64,000 bases of DNA from Escherichia coli (GCF_003018235.1 NZ_CP027437.1), one strand, 5' to 3'. Counted from the first letter of the stretch, positions 8,774 through 42,548 are shown. Notes: generated from the letters alone by a model not told the origin. Program-made: numbers and translations.

Positions 8774-11146
8774 ATGAAGCGAGTTCTTATTCCTGGCGTC
8801 ATTTTATGTGGCGCTGATGTGGCGCAGGCCGTCGATGACAAAAATATGTACATGCATGTTTTTGAAGAGATGACGGTCTATGCTCCTGTCCCTGTACCCG
8901 TAAACGGCAACACGCATTACACCAGTGAAAGCATCGAGCGTTTACCGACCGGGAATGGCAATATCAGCGATCTGCTGAGAACCAACCCTGCGGTACGCAT
9001 GGATTCAACGCAAAGTACCTCATTGAACCAGGGAGATATTCGCCCTGAGAAAATCTCTATTCACGGTGCGTCGCCCTACCAGAATGCCTATTTGATTGAT
9101 GGTATTAGTGCAACTAATAACCTGAACCCAGCGAATGAGTCCGATGCCAGTAGTGCAACCAATATTAGCGGGATGTCACAGGGGTATTATCTAGATGTCA
9201 GCTTACTTGACAATGTGACGCTTTATGACAGTTTTGTGCCGGTTGAATTTGGTCGCTTCAATGGCGGGGTAATTGATGCAAAGATCAAACGCTTCAATGC
9301 TGATGATAGCAGCGTGAAACTGGGTTATCGCACTACGCGTTCGGACTGGTTAACATCGCATATCGATGAGAATAACAAGAGCGCATTTAATCAAGGTTCT
9401 TCAGGAAGTACTTATTACTCTCCAGATTTTAAAAAGAACTTTTATACCTTGTCGTTTAATCAGGAACTGGCTGATAACTTCGGCGTTACCGCCGGTTTAT
9501 CGCGCCGCCAGTCTGATATCACCCGCGCGGATTATGTTTCGAATGACGGCATTGTCGCCGGTCGGGCACAGTATAAAAACGTTATCGATACCGCAGTGAG
9601 CAAATTTACCTGGTTTGCCAGCGACCGCTTTACCCACGATTTAACATTAAAATATACCGGCTCCAGTCGTGATTATAATACCAGCACCTTCCCGCAGTCT
9701 GATCGTGAAATGGGTAATAAATCCTACGGTCTGGCATGGGATATGGATACGCAGCTCGCAAGGGCCAAACTACGTACCACCGTTGGTTGGGATCATATTA
9801 GTGATTATACCCGTCACGATCATGACATCTGGTACACCGAACTTTCATGTACATATGGTGATATTACAGGGCGTTGCACCCGTGGCGGATTAGGACACAT
9901 TTCCCAGGCTGTAGATAATTACACCTTCAAAACACGCCTGGACTGGCAAAAATTCACCGTGGGTAATGTTTCGCATCAACCCTACTTCGGCGCGGAATAC
10001 ATCTATTCCGATGCATGGACTGAACGCCATAACCAGTCTGAATCCTATGTGATTAATGCTGCCGGAAAGAAAACTAACCATACCATTTACCATAAAGGTA
10101 AAGGCAGCCTGGGAATTGACAACTATACGCTGTATATGGCGGATCGCATTAGCTGGCGTAATGTGTCATTAATGCCCGGCGTGCGGTATGACTATGACAA
10201 CTATCTGTCAAACCACAATATCTCCCCGCGCTTTATGACGGAATGGGATATTTTTGCTGATCAAACCTCAATGATTACCGCCGGTTATAACCGTTACTAT
10301 GGCGGGAATATTCTTGATATGGGATTACGTGATATCCGCAATAGCTGGACGGAATCGGTATCAGGCAATAAAACCCTGACGCGTTATCAGGATTTGAAAA
10401 CACCTTATAACGATGAACTGGCAATGGGGTTGCAGCAGAAAATCGGTAAGAACGTTATTGCGCGTGCAAACTATGTTTATCGTGAAGCGCATGATCAAAT
10501 CAGTAAAAGCAGTCGTACCGACAGCGCGACTAAAACCACCATTACTGAATATAACAACGACGGCAAAACCAAAACGCATTCGTTCAACCTCAGTTTTGAA
10601 CTGGCCGAACCCCTGCATATCAGCCAGGTAGATATTAACCCGCAAATTGTCTTTAGCTATATCAAGAGCAAGGGCAACTTGTCGTTAAACAATGGTTATG
10701 AGGAAAGCAATACCGGCGATAACCAGGTGGTTTATAACGGTAATCTGGTCTCTTACGATAGCGTTCCAGTGGCAGATTTTAATAACCCATTAAAGATCTC
10801 CTTAAACATGGATTTCACGCATCAACCGAGCGGGTTGGTGTGGGCGAATACGCTGGCCTGGCAAGAAGCGCGTAAAGCTCGCATTATCCTGGGTAAGACG
10901 AATGCGCAATACATCAGCGAATATTCAGATTACAAGCAGTATGTTGACGAAAAACTGGATAGCAGCCTGACCTGGGACACCCGCTTGTCCTGGACGCCAC
11001 AATTTCTGAAACAACAAAACCTGACGATCAGTGCCGATATTCTCAATGTACTGGATAGCAAAACCGCGGTTGATACAACGAATACCGGTGTGGCGACCTA
11101 CGCCAGTGGCCGTACTTTCTGGCTTGATGTCAGCATGAAATTTTAA
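8774..11146 (+). CDS. yddB: TonB-dependent outer-membrane transporter YddB
   Basis: 790-aa ORF, C-terminal aromatic residue (..VSMKF), beta-barrel-like composition; recognised as YddB. Confidence 0.9.
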   Translation: MKRVLIPGVILCGADVAQAVDDKNMYMHVFEEMTVYAPVPVPVNGNTHYTSESIERLPTGNGNISDLLRTNPAVRMDSTQSTSLNQGDIRPEKISIHGASPYQNAYLIDGISATNNLNPANESDASSATNISGMSQGYYLDVSLLDNVTLYDSFVPVEFGRFNGGVIDAKIKRFNADDSSVKLGYRTTRSDWLTSHIDENNKSAFNQGSSGSTYYSPDFKKNFYTLSFNQELADNFGVTAGLSRRQSDITRADYVSNDGIVAGRAQYKNVIDTAVSKFTWFASDRFTHDLTLKYTGSSRDYNTSTFPQSDREMGNKSYGLAWDMDTQLARAKLRTTVGWDHISDYTRHDHDIWYTELSCTYGDITGRCTRGGLGHISQAVDNYTFKTRLDWQKFTVGNVSHQPYFGAEYIYSDAWTERHNQSESYVINAAGKKTNHTIYHKGKGSLGIDNYTLYMADRISWRNVSLMPGVRYDYDNYLSNHNISPRFMTEWDIFADQTSMITAGYNRYYGGNILDMGLRDIRNSWTESVSGNKTLTRYQDLKTPYNDELAMGLQQKIGKNVIARANYVYREAHDQISKSSRTDSATKTTITEYNNDGKTKTHSFNLSFELAEPLHISQVDINPQIVFSYIKSKGNLSLNNGYEESNTGDNQVVYNGNLVSYDSVPVADFNNPLKISLNMDFTHQPSGLVWANTLAWQEARKARIILGKTNAQYISEYSDYKQYVDEKLDSSLTWDTRLSWTPQFLKQQNLTISADILNVLDSKTAVDTTNTGVATYASGRTFWLDVSMKF

Positions 11147-34056: not shown

Positions 34057-34710
34057 TTATATCCCTTCTTCACTCTCTTTTTTCGCTTCTGCCTTCTCGA
34101 TTTCACGATACCAGCGCGGATGGTGTTTCTTCGCCCAGCGACGGCTCACCTTTCCTTCGATCATCCCTTTAATCGATCCTTTCACCCAGAATGCCATATA
34201 CATATGGATCAGGATGGCGTGGATCAGGATGATACCCGCAGCCGCGTGGATCAGCAGGCTATAACGGACAACCTGTATCGGGAAGTACTGCGCAAAGTAC
34301 GGACGCCAGATAATCACCCCGGTCACCAGCAGCACGAAAATCATGCTCATGATCGACCAGAACATCATCTTTTGCCCGGCGTTGTACTTACCAACATCCG
34401 CCACTTTGTGCTCATTGCCTTTTAATACTTCGACAATGTTCAACAGCCACGGAATATCTTTCTTATCCGGGATGTTGTGATGCACAAAACGCACAAACAT
34501 AAACATCAGCGCGACGAAAATCGCAATGCCGAAGAACGGGTGCAAAATGCGCCCCATCTGCGGCGTACCGAAGGTTTGCGTCAGCCATTGCAGCGTCGGG
34601 AAGAAGAACGAAATCCCGGACAGCGCCACCAGGAAGAAGCAAATCACCACGGTCCAGTGACAGGCGCGATCAATAAATTTGGTGCGCACAATCATTTTCG
34701 ACTTACTCAT
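34057..34710 (-). CDS. fdnI: Formate dehydrogenase-N gamma subunit (cytochrome b556)
   Basis: 217-aa product from the internal start ([15 protein letters not shown]...); 4 TM helices; 8-nt overlap with fdnH. Confidence 0.92.
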
Positions 34711-35587
34711 GATGATCCTCCTCGTCATCGTCCACTTCCTTATTCGGGCCAATACCGATGTAGTGGAAAATCAACCCGGCAAAAGTGGCAATAAAGCCAG
34801 CCGCTGCCAGCGGTTTCAACGCGCCTTTCCACAGGCTTACCGAGGTGTCGATCTTCGGATCTTTCGGCAGACCGTGATACAGCTCCGGCTGATCGGCATG
34901 ATGCAGCACGTACATGACATGCGTACCACCGACCCCTTCCGGGTTGTAGACGCCAGCATGTTCGTAACCACGCGCTTTCAGTTTCGCCACGCGCTGTTCC
35001 GCCAGCTCCAGCATCTCCTTCTTGGTACCGAAGTGGATAGCCCCGGTCGGACAGGTTTTCACACAAGCCGGTTCCTGGCCGACGCTGACGCGATCGACGC
35101 AGAGCGTGCATTTATATACCCGGTTATCCTCTTTGTTGAGGCGCGGAATATTAAACGGACACCCGGCAATGCAGTAACCACAGCCGATGCAGTTTTCCGA
35201 CTGGAAATCGACAATCCCGTTAGCGTACTGAATGATTGCACCAGCAGACGGGCACGCCTTCAGGCAGCCCGGATCTTCACAGTGCATACAGCCGTCTTTA
35301 CGGATCAGCCACTCCAGCTTGCCGTTCTGTTCGGTTTCGCTAAAGCGCATCACCGTCCAGGACTTGGCGCTCAGATCGGCGGGGTTATCGTAAACCCCGA
35401 CGCAGTGCCCCACTTCATCACGGATGTCGTTCCACTCCGAACACGCCACCTGACAGGCTTTACAACCGATACAGGTGGAAACGTCGATAAGTTTCGCGAC
35501 TTCTGCTTTGTAATCACGCACCTGAGAAGGCGGCGTGATGGAGTTAGTTGCGGACCTTTTGATAATGTCCTGCGTTTCCATAGCCAT
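34703..35587 (-). CDS. fdnH: Formate dehydrogenase-N iron-sulfur (beta) subunit
   Basis: 294-aa ORF with four ferredoxin-type Cys clusters (e.g. [11 protein letters not shown]). Confidence 0.95.
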
Positions 35588-35599
35588 CTGTTCGCCCCC

Positions 35600-38500
35600 T
35601 TACGCCTTCTCAATGTTGACTAAGAACGCTTTATATTCCGGCGTTTGCGAGTTTGCATCACCGACATTCGGCGTCAGAGTGTTAGCGATATAACCTTTAC
35701 GCGCGACACCCTCAAAGCCCCAGTGGATTGGAATACCCACCGTTTCAACCTGCTGACCGTTTACATTCAGCGGCTTCAGACGGCGCGTTACCACAGCCAC
35801 CGCGCGGATAAAGCCACGCTTGCTGGATACGGTGACACGGTCGCCATTGGCGATGCCTTTCGCCGCCGCCAGCGTTTCGCTGATTTCCACAAACTGTTCC
35901 GGCTGAGCAATGGCGTTGAGCAATGCATGCTTAGTCCAGGTGTGGAAGTGCTCGGTCAGACGATAGGTCGTACCCACATACGGGAACTGCTCTTTTTTAC
36001 CCATCCGCAGCGCGTCTTGTTCATACAGACGAACGACCGGGTTAGACACCACGTTCGGATGCAGCGGGTTAGTGCCCAGCGGCGTTTCAATTGGCTCGTA
36101 GTGTTCCGGGAACGGACCTTCCGCCATTTTGTTGATGGCAAACAGGCGTCCCATCCCTTCCGGCTGCATGATAAACGGTCCGGTTGGCGTACCTGGCGCG
36201 GCATTGCCGAAGTCCGGAATATCGTTACCCGTCCACTTGCTGCCGTTCCACTGGATCAGCATCCGTTTCGGATCCCACGGTTTACCGTTGATATCCGCCG
36301 AAGCACGGTTGTACAGCACGCGACGGTTGAGCGGCCACGCCCAGGCCCATCCCAGCGTATTCCCCAGACCGGATGGGTCGGAGTTATCGCGGTTAGCCAT
36401 CTGGTTGCCCTGCTCTGTCCAGCTACCGGTGTAGATCCAGCAAGACGATGCGGTTGTACCGTCATCACGCAGATGCGCAAAGCTACTCAGCAACTGACCT
36501 TTCTTCGCAATCAGCACGCCATTGGCATCATAGAGATCTTCCAGCGCGTAGCCGTTGTTCTCTTTAGCTACTTCGTCAGATTGCGGTTCGTGCGGCTGCT
36601 TGTAGTTCCAGCTCATCTTCATCAGCGGTTCTACGCCTTTACCACCTTCGGCCTGGTACAACTCGCGCAGATGATGGTAGATACCCGCCAGAATTTCGCC
36701 GTCGTTACGCGCTTCGCCCGGCGCGTCCTGACCTTTCCAGTGCCACTGCAACCAGCGACCGGAGTTAGCGATAGAACCATCTTCTTCAGCAAAGCAGGTC
36801 GAAGGCAGACGGAATACTTCAGTCTGAATAGACGCCGGATCGACATCGTTCGACTCGCCGTGGTTCTGCCAGAAGGTTGAGGTTTCAGTCACCAGCGGAT
36901 CGATAACCACCATGTACTTCAGTTTGCTCAGGCAGCTCACCACTTTGTTTTTGTCCGGGAAGGACGCAACCGGGTTAAAGCCCTGGCAGAAATAACCGGT
37001 GACTTTGCCTTCGTCCATCATGTTGAAATACTTGATGACGTCGTAGGTCTGGTCCCACTTCGGCAGCCAGTCGTAGCCCCAGTTGTTCTCTTTTTGCGCG
37101 GCATCGCCGTAGAAAGATTTCATAAGGCTAACGAAGAACTTCGGATAGTTGCTCCAGTAGTTCACCTGATCAGCCAGCGTCGCTTTCGGCGTGTTCGCTT
37201 CCAGATACGACTGCAAATCAACCTGTTTTTCTGACGGCAGCGTCAGATAACCCGGCAGGCTGGTAGAGAGCAGGCCTAAGTCGGTCAGACCCTGAATGTT
37301 GGAGTGACCACGCAATGCGTTCACGCCGCCACCGGCCATACCCATGTTACCGAGCAGTAACTGGATCATCGCCATAGTGCGGATGTTCTGCGCACCCACG
37401 GTGTGCTGCGTCCAGCCCAGCGCGTACAGGAAGGTGGTGGTGCGATCCGGCGCGCTGGTGGAGGCCAGCACTTCACACACTTTCAGGAAGTCGGCTTTTG
37501 GCGTACCGCAGATGTTTTCTACTACATCCGGCGTGTAGCGGGAAACGTGCTCTTTCAGCAGGTTCCACACACAGCGCGGATGAGTCAGTGTTTCATCGCG
37601 TTTCGCATAGCCGTTTTCATCGAACTGATAGTTCCAGGACGATTTATCGTACTGGCGTTTTTCAGCGTCGTAGCCGCTGAACAGACCGTCTTCGAAAGCA
37701 AAATCATCACGCACCAGCAGGCTGGCATTGGTGTAATGCTTAACGTATTCGGCATTGATTTTGTTGTTTTCGATCAGGTAGCGCAAAACGCCAGACAGGA
37801 ACGTAATGTCCGTACCGGAACGAATAGGTGCGTAAATATCCGCTACAGAAGCGGTACGCGTAAAACGGGGATCGACAACGATCAAGGTTGCATCGTTGTT
37901 GTTTTTCGCTTCCATCGCCCAGCGGAAACCGACGGGATGCGCTTCAGCAGCGTTACCGCCCATCACCATCACGACGTTAGCGTTTTTGATATCCACCCAG
38001 TGGTTGGTCATCGCACCGCGACCAAATGTTGGAGCAAGACTTGCTACCGTTGGTCCGTGTCAGACGCGCGCCTGGTTGTCTACCGCCAGCATCCCGAGGG
38101 AGCGGGCAAATTTCTGGGTCAGCATCCCGGTTTCGTTGCTGGCACCGGAGGCACACAGCATACCGGTAGAAAGCCAACGGTTTACCGTTACGCCCTGCTC
38201 GTTCTTTTCAATAAAGTTAGCGTCACGGTCAGCTTTCATCAGCTTCGCTATACGGGAGAATGCTTCTTCCCAGCTAATGCGCTGCCATTTGTCAGAACCT
38301 GGCGCACGATATTCCGGGTAGCGCAGACGGTTTTCGCTGTTGACGTAATCCAGCAAACCGGCCCCTTTCGGGCACAGCGCACCACGGCTTACCGGATGAT
38401 CCGGGTCACCTTCAATGTGATAAATCGCTTCTCTGGCGTTTTTCGCGCCATCACCCAGGCTATACATCAATAGCCCGCAACCTACGGAACAGTATGTGCA

Positions 38501-38647
38501 GGTGTTACGGATCTCTTTAGCGCGTAATAATTTGTAGTTTCGCGCCTGAGCCAGTGCTTGCTTCGGGGCAAAGCCCAATGCCGCTACTGTTGTTCCAGCC
38601 ATACCGCCCGCGCAGATTTTAAAAAATTGTCTGCGACTGACGTCCAT
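35600..38647 (-). CDS. fdnG: Formate dehydrogenase-N alpha subunit, selenocysteine-containing (in-frame TGA at 38060..38062)
   Basis: ORFs 38060..38647 and 35600..38011 are one frame interrupted only by TGA, giving 1015 codons with Sec at codon 196; Tat signal RRQFFK. Confidence 0.93.
38020..38059 (-). promoter_or_regulatory. Putative SECIS stem-loop immediately 3' of the fdnG UGA codon
   Basis: mRNA segment ...GGUAGCAAGUCUUGCUCC... can fold into a hairpin with a GUCUU-type apical loop, similar in shape to the fdhF SECIS. Confidence 0.5.
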
Positions 38648-38711
38648 TGCTTTCCTCTTTTTTCAGGGGTATTACTGCGCGAGGAAACTAACAGTAAAAT
38701 TCTGAATCTTT

Positions 38712-38725
38712 TTGCGCGAAATCAA
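38712..38725 (-). promoter_or_regulatory. Candidate FNR site (TTGAT-N4-CGCAA on the fdnG sense strand) in the fdnG promoter
   Basis: Half-site match to TTGAT-N4-ATCAA about 70 bp upstream of the fdnG ATG. Confidence 0.35.
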
Positions 38726-38772
38726 AAAGAACACGTGTTTGCCACAAAATAATCCGCCTGCGCAAATTGACC

Positions 38773-38788
38773 TACCTCAATAGCGGTA
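38773..38788 (-). promoter_or_regulatory. Candidate NarL 7-2-7 heptamer pair (TACCGCT-at-TGAGGTA on the fdnG sense strand)
   Basis: Inverted heptamers resembling TACYYMT-N2-AKRRGTA, about 60 bp upstream of the FNR-like site. Confidence 0.35.
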
Positions 38789-38878
38789 GAAAAACGCACC
38801 ACTGCCTGACAGGCCAGTTAAAAAAATGCTATAAAATTCAGCTTAATTTTTAACGGCAAGAGAGACAAAACAGCGAGC

Positions 38879-41158: not shown

Positions 41159-41288
41159 ATTTAAGTGCTGCTGTATGACTCCTTAAGTAAAAATGAGCAA
41201 TTTTTGATATTTCTGGTCATTCACCTCAATTAATATTATTCCATACCCTCCGGGGACATCTTACTATAATATTTATTGATGAGTGATT

Positions 41289-42548
41289 ATGACCAATATT
41301 AATACAGCTTGTGTAAAAAATAATGCCAGTTATCAATTAAATAACGCATTACCTAACAAAGAAACCATCTCCAGCAATTTTTGTGAACGACTGGCACAAT
41401 GGGGTAATAAGTCGCTTAATAATGGTGAAGAAAGAGCTATTGCCGTAGAGCGAATTAAAGAAGCTTACAATTCGAACATGGCATCTCTTGATTTGTCATA
41501 TCTTGATTTGAGTGAGTTACCGCCTATCCCCTCGACAGTTAACACGTTAAATCTGGAAAAAAATTGTCTCACTTGTCTTGACTTTACTGACAATGCCAGC
41601 CTCGTCAATATCAACCTCAGCTTTAATAAAATTAAAACGATAACCTTTCCAAATGAATCAAAACTGGAAAATATTTATATTGATCACAACAATCTGGAAA
41701 ATTTGGATTTAAAAAATCAGCATTCATTGGTTAACCTGGAAGCGCAAAATAACAACCTGACAAAAATTAATATTTCTGATAGTTATAAACTGAAATTTCT
41801 TAATCTTGATTATAACAAGCTAGCATCGCTGGATCTCTCCCGGCAAGAATCTCTGATTGAGTTAAGTGCCCATCACAATATGATCACTGACCTTATATTA
41901 CACAATCATCCCAGGATGAAAAAAATCACTTTAAACGACAACCATATTGCACATTTAAACGCGAAAACCACTACAAAACTGGAATATTTAAACTTAAGCA
42001 ATAACAATTTATTGCCAACAGATGACATTGATCAATTAATATCATCAAAACATCTTTGGCATGTATTAGTTAACGGCATCAACAATGATCCACTTGCCCA
42101 AATGCAGTACTGGACTGCAGTAAGAAATATAATTGATGACACTAATGAAGTGACCATTGAATTATCTTATAATCTGGCAATCACAAATATCGATACCAGC
42201 GATGAACATCTTGTAGAAGTAAGCGAGAATTCCGAAGGAAATCATATAAAAGACAATGACTCAATGTCTATTCGTTATAGATCAAAATATTATTCTAGAG
42301 AGTACGCTTTAATAGAAGAAGAAACAATATTTTCTGACGCAGAACTAAAAGCCATTCTGCCTATGCATCGCATGTACGGGGTTGGTGACTATAAGTCAAA
42401 TTCCTCTTCTCTACCCTCACACTCGGGGCTAAAGGACCCAACGGGCACACCCGTCTGTTATTATATTCATAATGAGGATAAACCTTCCTTAGGTTATGGT
42501 TCAACACCCAATAATTGGTTAAACCAATCCTTTTCTACAGAGTTATAA
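41289..42548 (+). CDS. Leucine-rich-repeat protein (YddK-like; IpaH/SspH-type N-terminal LRR domain, no recognisable NEL ligase domain)
   Basis: Tandem 20-22-aa LxxLxLxxNxL repeats; N-terminal W..K..GEER.AV.RIKE segment followed by LDLS.L..LPP; about 70 percent A+T; start at 41289 or alternative GTG at 41283. Confidence 0.75.
   Translation: MTNINTACVKNNASYQLNNALPNKETISSNFCERLAQWGNKSLNNGEERAIAVERIKEAYNSNMASLDLSYLDLSELPPIPSTVNTLNLEKNCLTCLDFTDNASLVNINLSFNKIKTITFPNESKLENIYIDHNNLENLDLKNQHSLVNLEAQNNNLTKINISDSYKLKFLNLDYNKLASLDLSRQESLIELSAHHNMITDLILHNHPRMKKITLNDNHIAHLNAKTTTKLEYLNLSNNNLLPTDDIDQLISSKHLWHVLVNGINNDPLAQMQYWTAVRNIIDDTNEVTIELSYNLAITNIDTSDEHLVEVSENSEGNHIKDNDSMSIRYRSKYYSREYALIEEETIFSDAELKAILPMHRMYGVGDYKSNSSSLPSHSGLKDPTGTPVCYYIHNEDKPSLGYGSTPNNWLNQSFSTEL

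Follow-up and report, generated by a model that had tools for sequence, protein, structure and literature searches.

Does an in-frame TGA within a gene for a respiratory enzyme end translation, or is it read as an amino acid? The question is raised by a 64,000-nucleotide (nt) stretch of Escherichia coli DNA (GCF_003018235.1, NZ_CP027437.1), here called the window, in which fdnG, the gene for the catalytic major subunit of formate dehydrogenase-N (FDH-N), occupies positions 35600..38647 on the minus strand. Translation of 38647..35600 (minus strand) as a single frame gave 1016 codons including the terminal TAA (35602..35600), corresponding to a protein of 1015 amino acids, and the sole internal stop in that frame was a TGA at codon 196, window positions 38062..38060, followed directly by the codon for His197 (38059..38057). 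The minus-strand sequence near 38,000 reads GCG CGC GUC UGA CAC GGA CCA ACG GUA GCA AGU CUU GCU CCA ACA UUU GGU CGC GGU GCG AUG ACC. We conclude, with a probability of about 97%, that the TGA at 38062..38060 (minus strand) is the selenocysteine 196 (Sec196) codon of fdnG and that it is followed in the next 40 to 60 nt by a bacterial selenocysteine insertion sequence (SECIS) that doubles as codons 197 to 215. Three rival explanations jointly receive about 3%.

The UGA of fdnG is a canonical case of bacterial recoding, published for E. coli decades ago. Full-length selenium-containing FdnG has likewise been published for strain K-12, in which the sequence around the codon is identical to that of the window. 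Sec196 of fdnG and its SECIS (Rfam RF01989, PDB 1KQF) are therefore already textbook knowledge, and the present analysis leaves that picture unchanged.

Listing of open reading frames (ORFs) returned two pieces at the locus, 38060..38647 (minus strand, 195 amino acids) and 35600..38011 (minus strand, 803 amino acids). An earlier reading of the same DNA, here called the original prediction, had stated that the two ORFs are one 1016-codon frame interrupted only by TGA and that a naive ORF caller would split the gene; the join was exact to the base, with the terminal stop included in the count, and the listing contained exactly those two pieces. When the stop was replaced by cysteine, the FdnG protein aligned with chain A of PDB entry 1KQF over residues 1 to 1015 with three substitutions (2397 bits, E = 0). 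That chain is entitled "formate dehydrogenase, nitrate-inducible, major subunit" and carries a non-standard residue, "X," at exactly position 196. Moreover, FdnG of the window scored 1624 bits on the NCBIfam equivalog TIGR01553, for which the cut-off is 814, and RefSeq gives fdnG as a single unbroken coding sequence (CDS) of 3048 nt in the records of E. coli TUM14771, ETEC1738, and K-12. The CDS assigned here, 1015 codons plus TAA, draws on the translation, 1KQF chain A, TIGR01553, and the RefSeq CDS together.

A second candidate for the identity of the gene was the paralogue fdoG, which belongs to formate dehydrogenase-O (FDH-O). Next to fdnG on the minus strand lie fdnH at 34703..35587, encoding the iron-sulfur beta subunit (TIGR01582, 482 bits versus a cut-off of 335), and fdnI at 34057..34710, encoding the cytochrome b gamma subunit (486 bits on the FDH-N-specific model NF007558, cut-off 339). 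The same gamma subunit scored 270 bits on the fdoI (FDH-O) model NF007924, below its cut-off of 341. In addition, the gene order yddG, fdnGHI, yddM, adhP, maeA is the same as in E. coli TUM14771, ETEC1738, and K-12. An fdoG identity was rejected on the gamma-subunit scores and on synteny, and we conclude that the locus is fdn and not the paralogous fdo, because the gamma subunit passes NF007558 and fails NF007924. The original assignment of the TGA to Sec196 of FDH-N was thus borne out in both of its parts, as codon 196 coincides with the "X" of 1KQF and the models and synteny make the gene fdnG.

The RNA downstream of the UGA matched a known family. The Rfam covariance model SECIS_3 (RF01989) aligned end to end with 38065..38007 (minus strand) and scored 84.3 bits (gathering score, 63), with an E value of 3e-19 in a 15-kb search and of 1.4e-18 over the full 64 kb, and SECIS_3 was the only Rfam family to reach its gathering score anywhere in the window. 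The fdhF-type family SECIS_2 was rejected, as the window scored 28.8 bits on it and its gathering score is 70, and the element is assigned to SECIS_3. We define the interval 38007..38065 (minus strand), which lies within codons 195 to 215, as the SECIS element of fdnG, on the strength of the covariance model and of identity with K-12.

When the U of UGA is counted as nt 1, the UGA is separated by a spacer of 11 nt (CACGGACCAAC, nt 4 to 14) from an apical minihelix, GGUAGCAAGUCUUGCUCC, at nt 15 to 32 (38031..38048, minus strand). The bases of the minihelix are G15 G16 U17 A18 G19 C20 A21 A22 G23 U24 C25 U26 U27 G28 C29 U30 C31 C32, and its predicted fold, ((.(((((...))))))), was obtained with the minihelix alone and in longer contexts alike, with pair probabilities of 0.53 to 0.96 in a 300-nt context. 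U17 (38046) is bulged in the predicted fold, and G23 (38040) and U24 (38039) lie in the loop, where G23 sits 20 nt past the A of UGA. According to PMC8659212, which cites Liu et al. 1998, the functional part of the fdhF SECIS is a 17-nt upper stem-loop (nt 15 to 31) at a distance of 11 nt from the UGA; U17 is bulged there, the loop contains G23 and U24, SelB is contacted by U17 and G23, and the lower part adds only about 25% of read-through. A conserved loop G lies about 20 nt past the UGA of SECIS elements (PMC4605307), and the distance from UGA to apical loop ranges from 16 to 37 nt (PMC10778597). The window element fits these published determinants of spacing, bulge, and loop (PMC8659212, PMC4605307, PMC10778597). 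The fold, the covariation and frozen synonymous sites described below, and the fdhF work (PMC8659212) all point to the minihelix as the SelB-binding part of the element, and its identity to that of K-12 suggests that it would be bound by SelB.

Comparison with K-12 indicated that the entire recoding signal is shared. Identity to fdnG of K-12 (b1474) is complete from 9 nt ahead of the UGA to 57 nt past it, and the codon number, the operon, and the neighbouring genes agree as well. Elsewhere the two genes differ at 60 of 3048 nt (98.0% identity), and the differences are scattered, with none within nt 500 to 720, such that the recoding signal is untouched; the two proteins differ at 3 of 1015 residues (F342L, A666S, and A933N). 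That the SECIS is unchanged amid scattered differences in the rest of fdnG argues for continuing selection. The identity of the element to that of K-12 fdnG also suggests that selenocysteine would be inserted at codon 196 here.

The K-12 paralogue fdoG (b3894) contains a 59-nt SECIS identical to that of the window, and its UGA is also codon 196; fdnG and fdoG of K-12 both score 84.3 bits on SECIS_3. Unlike fdnG of the window, fdoG lies in a separate operon, fdoGHI-fdhE, and outside the element its sequence retains only about 75% identity. Nucleotide identity between the paralogues is 0.97 to 0.98 over nt 571 to 660 versus about 0.75 elsewhere. The K-12 sites that correspond to window 38007-38065 (minus strand) are L131:1984-2042 (plus strand) for fdnG and L132:5183-5241 (minus strand) for fdoG. 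The stretch of identity between fdnG and fdoG, 57 nt past the UGA, runs beyond the SelB minihelix, which could stem from gene conversion or else from a constraint acting on two parts that current models deem dispensable, the lower stem and the 3′ flank.

The experimentally dissected prototype is the SECIS of fdhF (b4079), which belongs to SECIS_2 (RF01988, 87.1 bits) and serves a UGA at codon 140, read as Sec140. Like the window element, that of fdhF has CACGG after the UGA, an 11-nt spacer, a minihelix that begins with GGU, a U17 bulge, and a G23/U24 loop, all at equal positions. The two differ in that the fdhF minihelix is 17 nt long with a 4-nt loop, GGUC, whereas that of fdnG is 18 nt long and has an additional A22-U26 pair that closes a GUC loop, and the lower stem and 3′ flank of fdhF are also different. 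The alignment with the fdhF and fdoG elements that the original prediction had proposed as a check showed a likeness to both, as full 59-nt identity in fdoG and as common spacer, U17, G23, and U24 positions in fdhF. Among more remote relatives, periplasmic formate dehydrogenases described as having selenocysteine-containing alpha subunits (6sdr_A, 1h0h_A) are full-length homologues of FdnG (E = 1e-273 to 1e-289), but they are more distant (about 910 to 965 bits versus 2397 for 1KQF) and have other partner subunits.

Homologues were collected by scanning metagenomic contigs with a pattern that fixed only UGA-CAY-GGN-CC and the flanks GG/GG/ATGAC. At least 120 loci were obtained, from which 100 distinct 59-mers were aligned (alignment A1) and base pairs were counted on the Rfam structure; all counts from these loci and this alignment refer to the matches listed. 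The protein context QARV-U-HGPTV..L..TFGRGAMT was present at every locus. The apical helix was paired in 87.6% of cells, and compensatory changes were found at three of its seven pairs: pair 21-33 (GC 52, CG 18, AU 2, UA 2), pair 22-32 (UG 48, GC 47), and pair 24-30 (CG 57, AU 13). The observed covariation score was reached by none of 500 column shuffles, and sliding the 3′ partners by one to three columns lowered pairing from 79.9% to 29 to 51%. Moreover, the third-position G of the Thr codon (column 18), which pairs with C35, was G in 99 of 100 sequences, and the third-position U24 (column 27) was U in all 100, while the other four-fold sites of the element had entropies of 1.2 to 1.9 bits. 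Third positions that are frozen amid variable four-fold neighbours indicate selection on the RNA and not on the protein.

Two further observations were made in the same alignment. All 100 metagenomic elements had the hairpin at a constant distance from the UGA with G23 and U24 invariant, and substitutions of A199/A202 by S199/G202 were coupled, with the stem preserved. U17 was predicted to be paired in 68 of the 100, with GGUCUCAAGUUUGGGACC as an example that forms a perfect 7-bp stem, and to be bulged as in E. coli in 29; the coupled substitutions at 199 and 202 go along with this change. If the U17-paired class is real, distinct geometries of SelB recognition might have evolved jointly with the active-site peptide, a model that we regard as improbable.

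Several observations weigh against reading the region as a recoding signal. Folding energy did not set the element apart: the 59-nt element folded at -17.4 kcal/mol, a z score of -0.77 relative to dinucleotide shuffles, of which 39 in 200 did as well; the 45 nt past the UGA folded at -13.8 kcal/mol, with no advantage over 5000 synonymous recodings of HGPTVASLAPTFGRG and with z scores of +0.7 to -0.5 for fold energy against such recodings; and the minihelix by itself, at only -4.5 kcal/mol, was weaker than any other of the 100 compared among the matches listed. The lower helix has poor support and an ambiguous register, in that the Rfam register has A-G and A-C mismatches in the window sequence and the minimum free energy (MFE) fold takes a shifted register, and across the alignment the lower helix was 74 to 76% paired in either the Rfam or the window-MFE register. 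RNAalifold, applied to the mixed 100-sequence alignment, gave a near-empty consensus of -1.84 kcal/mol without the hairpin, probably due to the coexistence of two stem registers. The homologue set is itself biased, having been selected by a pattern that fixes the flanks, and two of the identity nucleotides are constrained by coding, as U17 and G23 occupy second codon positions, the former in a codon for Val and the latter in one for Ser or Gly. Finally, no sel genes and no tRNA genes were found within the 64-kb window, and any sel genes of this genome lie outside it.

Folding energy was dropped as a discriminating test, against shuffles and recodings alike. A different result was obtained when structure was scored by form, as only 0.3 to 0.6% of 200,000 synonymous recodings preserved a six-pair minihelix together with U17 and G23U24. 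We conclude that the specificity of the minihelix resides in its geometry and identity nucleotides and not in its stability. For the original prediction, the outcome at the hairpin was mixed. The RNA that it had quoted as a SECIS-like stem-loop, GGUAGCAAGUCUUGCUCC, is precisely the minihelix 38048..38031, with the SECIS_3 match, K-12 identity, and covariation in its favour, and its further expectation of a SelB-binding loop agreed with the fold, with its U17 bulge and G23/U24 loop. What was overstated was the word "stable," as the hairpin is no stabler than its controls and the 45-nt fold is no better than synonymous recodings. The interpretation as a whole is supported.

The absence of sel genes from the window is what speaks for the rival that survives best, namely, that the ribosome passes the UGA with no selenocysteine involved, as by near-cognate insertion of Trp or Cys, in a strain that lacks a working sel system and in which the hairpin is a relic. 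Queries with K-12 selB-selA, selD, and selC against 5426 complete E. coli genomes found selAB in 5425, selD in 5425, and selC in 5424, and fdnG was likewise present in 5425 of the 5426. We infer that selABCD is present in the genome of the window as well. Moreover, a SECIS that is 100% conserved relative to K-12, despite 60 differences in 3048 nt elsewhere in fdnG, is not what a relic would predict, and read-through of this kind is very unlikely.

A little less likely still is that the TGA is a true stop, in which case fdnG would be a pseudogene or would be split into products of 195 and 803 amino acids. TGA is a standard stop in translation table 11, and the two listed ORFs are what such a split would yield. 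Against it, this TGA recurs in an unchanged context in K-12 fdnG and fdoG and in the 100 distinct metagenomic homologues among the matches listed. The frame is open on both sides of the TGA and is near-identical to a crystallised full-length protein, and the SECIS follows directly. Moreover, the second ORF would be unable to function alone because it is without the signal for twin-arginine translocation (Tat) and the [4Fe-4S] motif. Both were read from the translation upstream of codon 196, the Tat twin-arginine motif SRRQFFK at FdnG codons 4 to 10 (38618..38638, minus strand) and the N-terminal [4Fe-4S] Cys motif C50-x2-C53-x3-C57-x34-C92 at 38372..38500 (minus strand). Least likely of all is that conservation past the TGA reflects protein constraint on the active-site peptide HGPTVASLAPTFGRG alone with no functional RNA structure. 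In its favour are the strong conservation of the peptide, the location of several invariant RNA nucleotides at the first or second base of a codon, and the unexceptional folding energy. Against it, the third positions at column 18 and U24 are fixed in 99 to 100 of 100 homologues among the matches listed while neighbouring four-fold sites vary freely, the coupled changes at residues 199 and 202 keep the pairing, few synonymous recodings retain the minihelix, and the covariance model scores 21 bits over its curated threshold.

With the UGA taken as a selenocysteine codon, the mechanism of decoding can be carried over from the K-12 system, whose element has an identical sequence. SelD would produce selenophosphate, with which SelA would turn Ser-tRNA(Sec), anticodon UCA, into Sec-tRNA(Sec). 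SelB-GTP would then bind Sec-tRNA(Sec), and its C-terminal winged-helix domains would bind the minihelix, nt 15 to 32, via the bulged U17 and loop nucleotides G23 and U24. While a UGA occupies the A site, the ribosome encloses about 11 nt of mRNA (PMC4513850). At that stage the lower stem of the fdnG element would be melted and the minihelix alone would be left at the tunnel entrance, where it would tether SelB and Sec-tRNA beside the A site such that release factor 2 (RF2) is outcompeted. The ribosome would go on through the hairpin and translate it as HGPTVASLAPTFGRG.

The FdnG translation carries U196-H197 and also Arg446. In the 1KQF structure, residues 196, 197, and 446 make up the active site, with Sec196 as the ligand to the molybdenum of the bis-molybdopterin guanine dinucleotide (bis-MGD) cofactor, beside His197 and Arg446. 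Tat-exported FdnGH would rest on FdnI, and electrons would pass from formate to menaquinone.

Other features were noted around the gene. In the region upstream of fdnG (38648-38878, minus strand), TTGATTTCGCGCAA at 38725-38712, TACCGCTATTGAGGTA at 38788-38773, and TACCCCT at 38671-38665 were read by eye. As candidate sites of the fdnG control region, TTGATTTCGCGCAA has a likeness to an FNR site and TACCGCTATTGAGGTA to a 7-2-7 pair of NarL heptamers. The SECIS region within fdnG is also crossed in antisense by a GTG-start ORF of 356 amino acids (37403-38473, plus strand), most likely a spurious frame opposite a conserved gene.

Farther from fdnG, positions 1-53323 of the window align collinearly with E. 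coli ETEC1738 at 98.9% identity. The best identity among complete RefSeq E. coli genomes was 99.1% over 25 kb and 98.8% over fdnG, and because none exceeds these values, the lineage of the window is unrepresented among the 5426 complete genomes. A 1.45-kb insertion at 53324-54778 (plus strand), between yddE and nhoA, is missing from the closest complete genome and is an IS3-family insertion sequence (IS) element, annotated elsewhere as IS1397. Its orfA, with helix-turn-helix (HTH) domains, lies at 53389-53919 (plus strand), and its orfB, with rve integrase domains, lies in the frame 54024-54746 (plus strand), both by domain match. Close to where orfA ends, the heptamer AAAAAAG (53871-53877) probably serves for programmed -1 frameshifting and would be a second recoding signal of the window. 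Divergence from the reference is seen at the right end, at about 57179-59004, in the Rhs tip region. yddB (8774-11146, plus strand) and narZ (45539-49402, plus strand) are intact ORFs in the window, whereas both are pseudogenes with internal stops in the ETEC1738 annotation. Two adjacent leucine-rich-repeat ORFs, at 41283-42548 (plus strand, 421 amino acids) and 42611-43864 (plus strand, 417 amino acids), lie between a porin gene annotated as ompC and narU, and the first of them is only a partial pseudogene in reference genomes.

For fdnG, the in-frame UGA matters in two ways. Folding energy serves poorly to recognise a SECIS, because the functional fdnG element is no stabler than shuffled or recoded controls, and such elements should be judged by geometry, identity nucleotides, and covariation. 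ORF callers blind to recoding cut fdnG into pieces of 195 and 803 amino acids, such that a respiratory enzyme is lost from the annotation, and a match to Rfam SECIS_3 is an easy means of rescuing the split gene during annotation.

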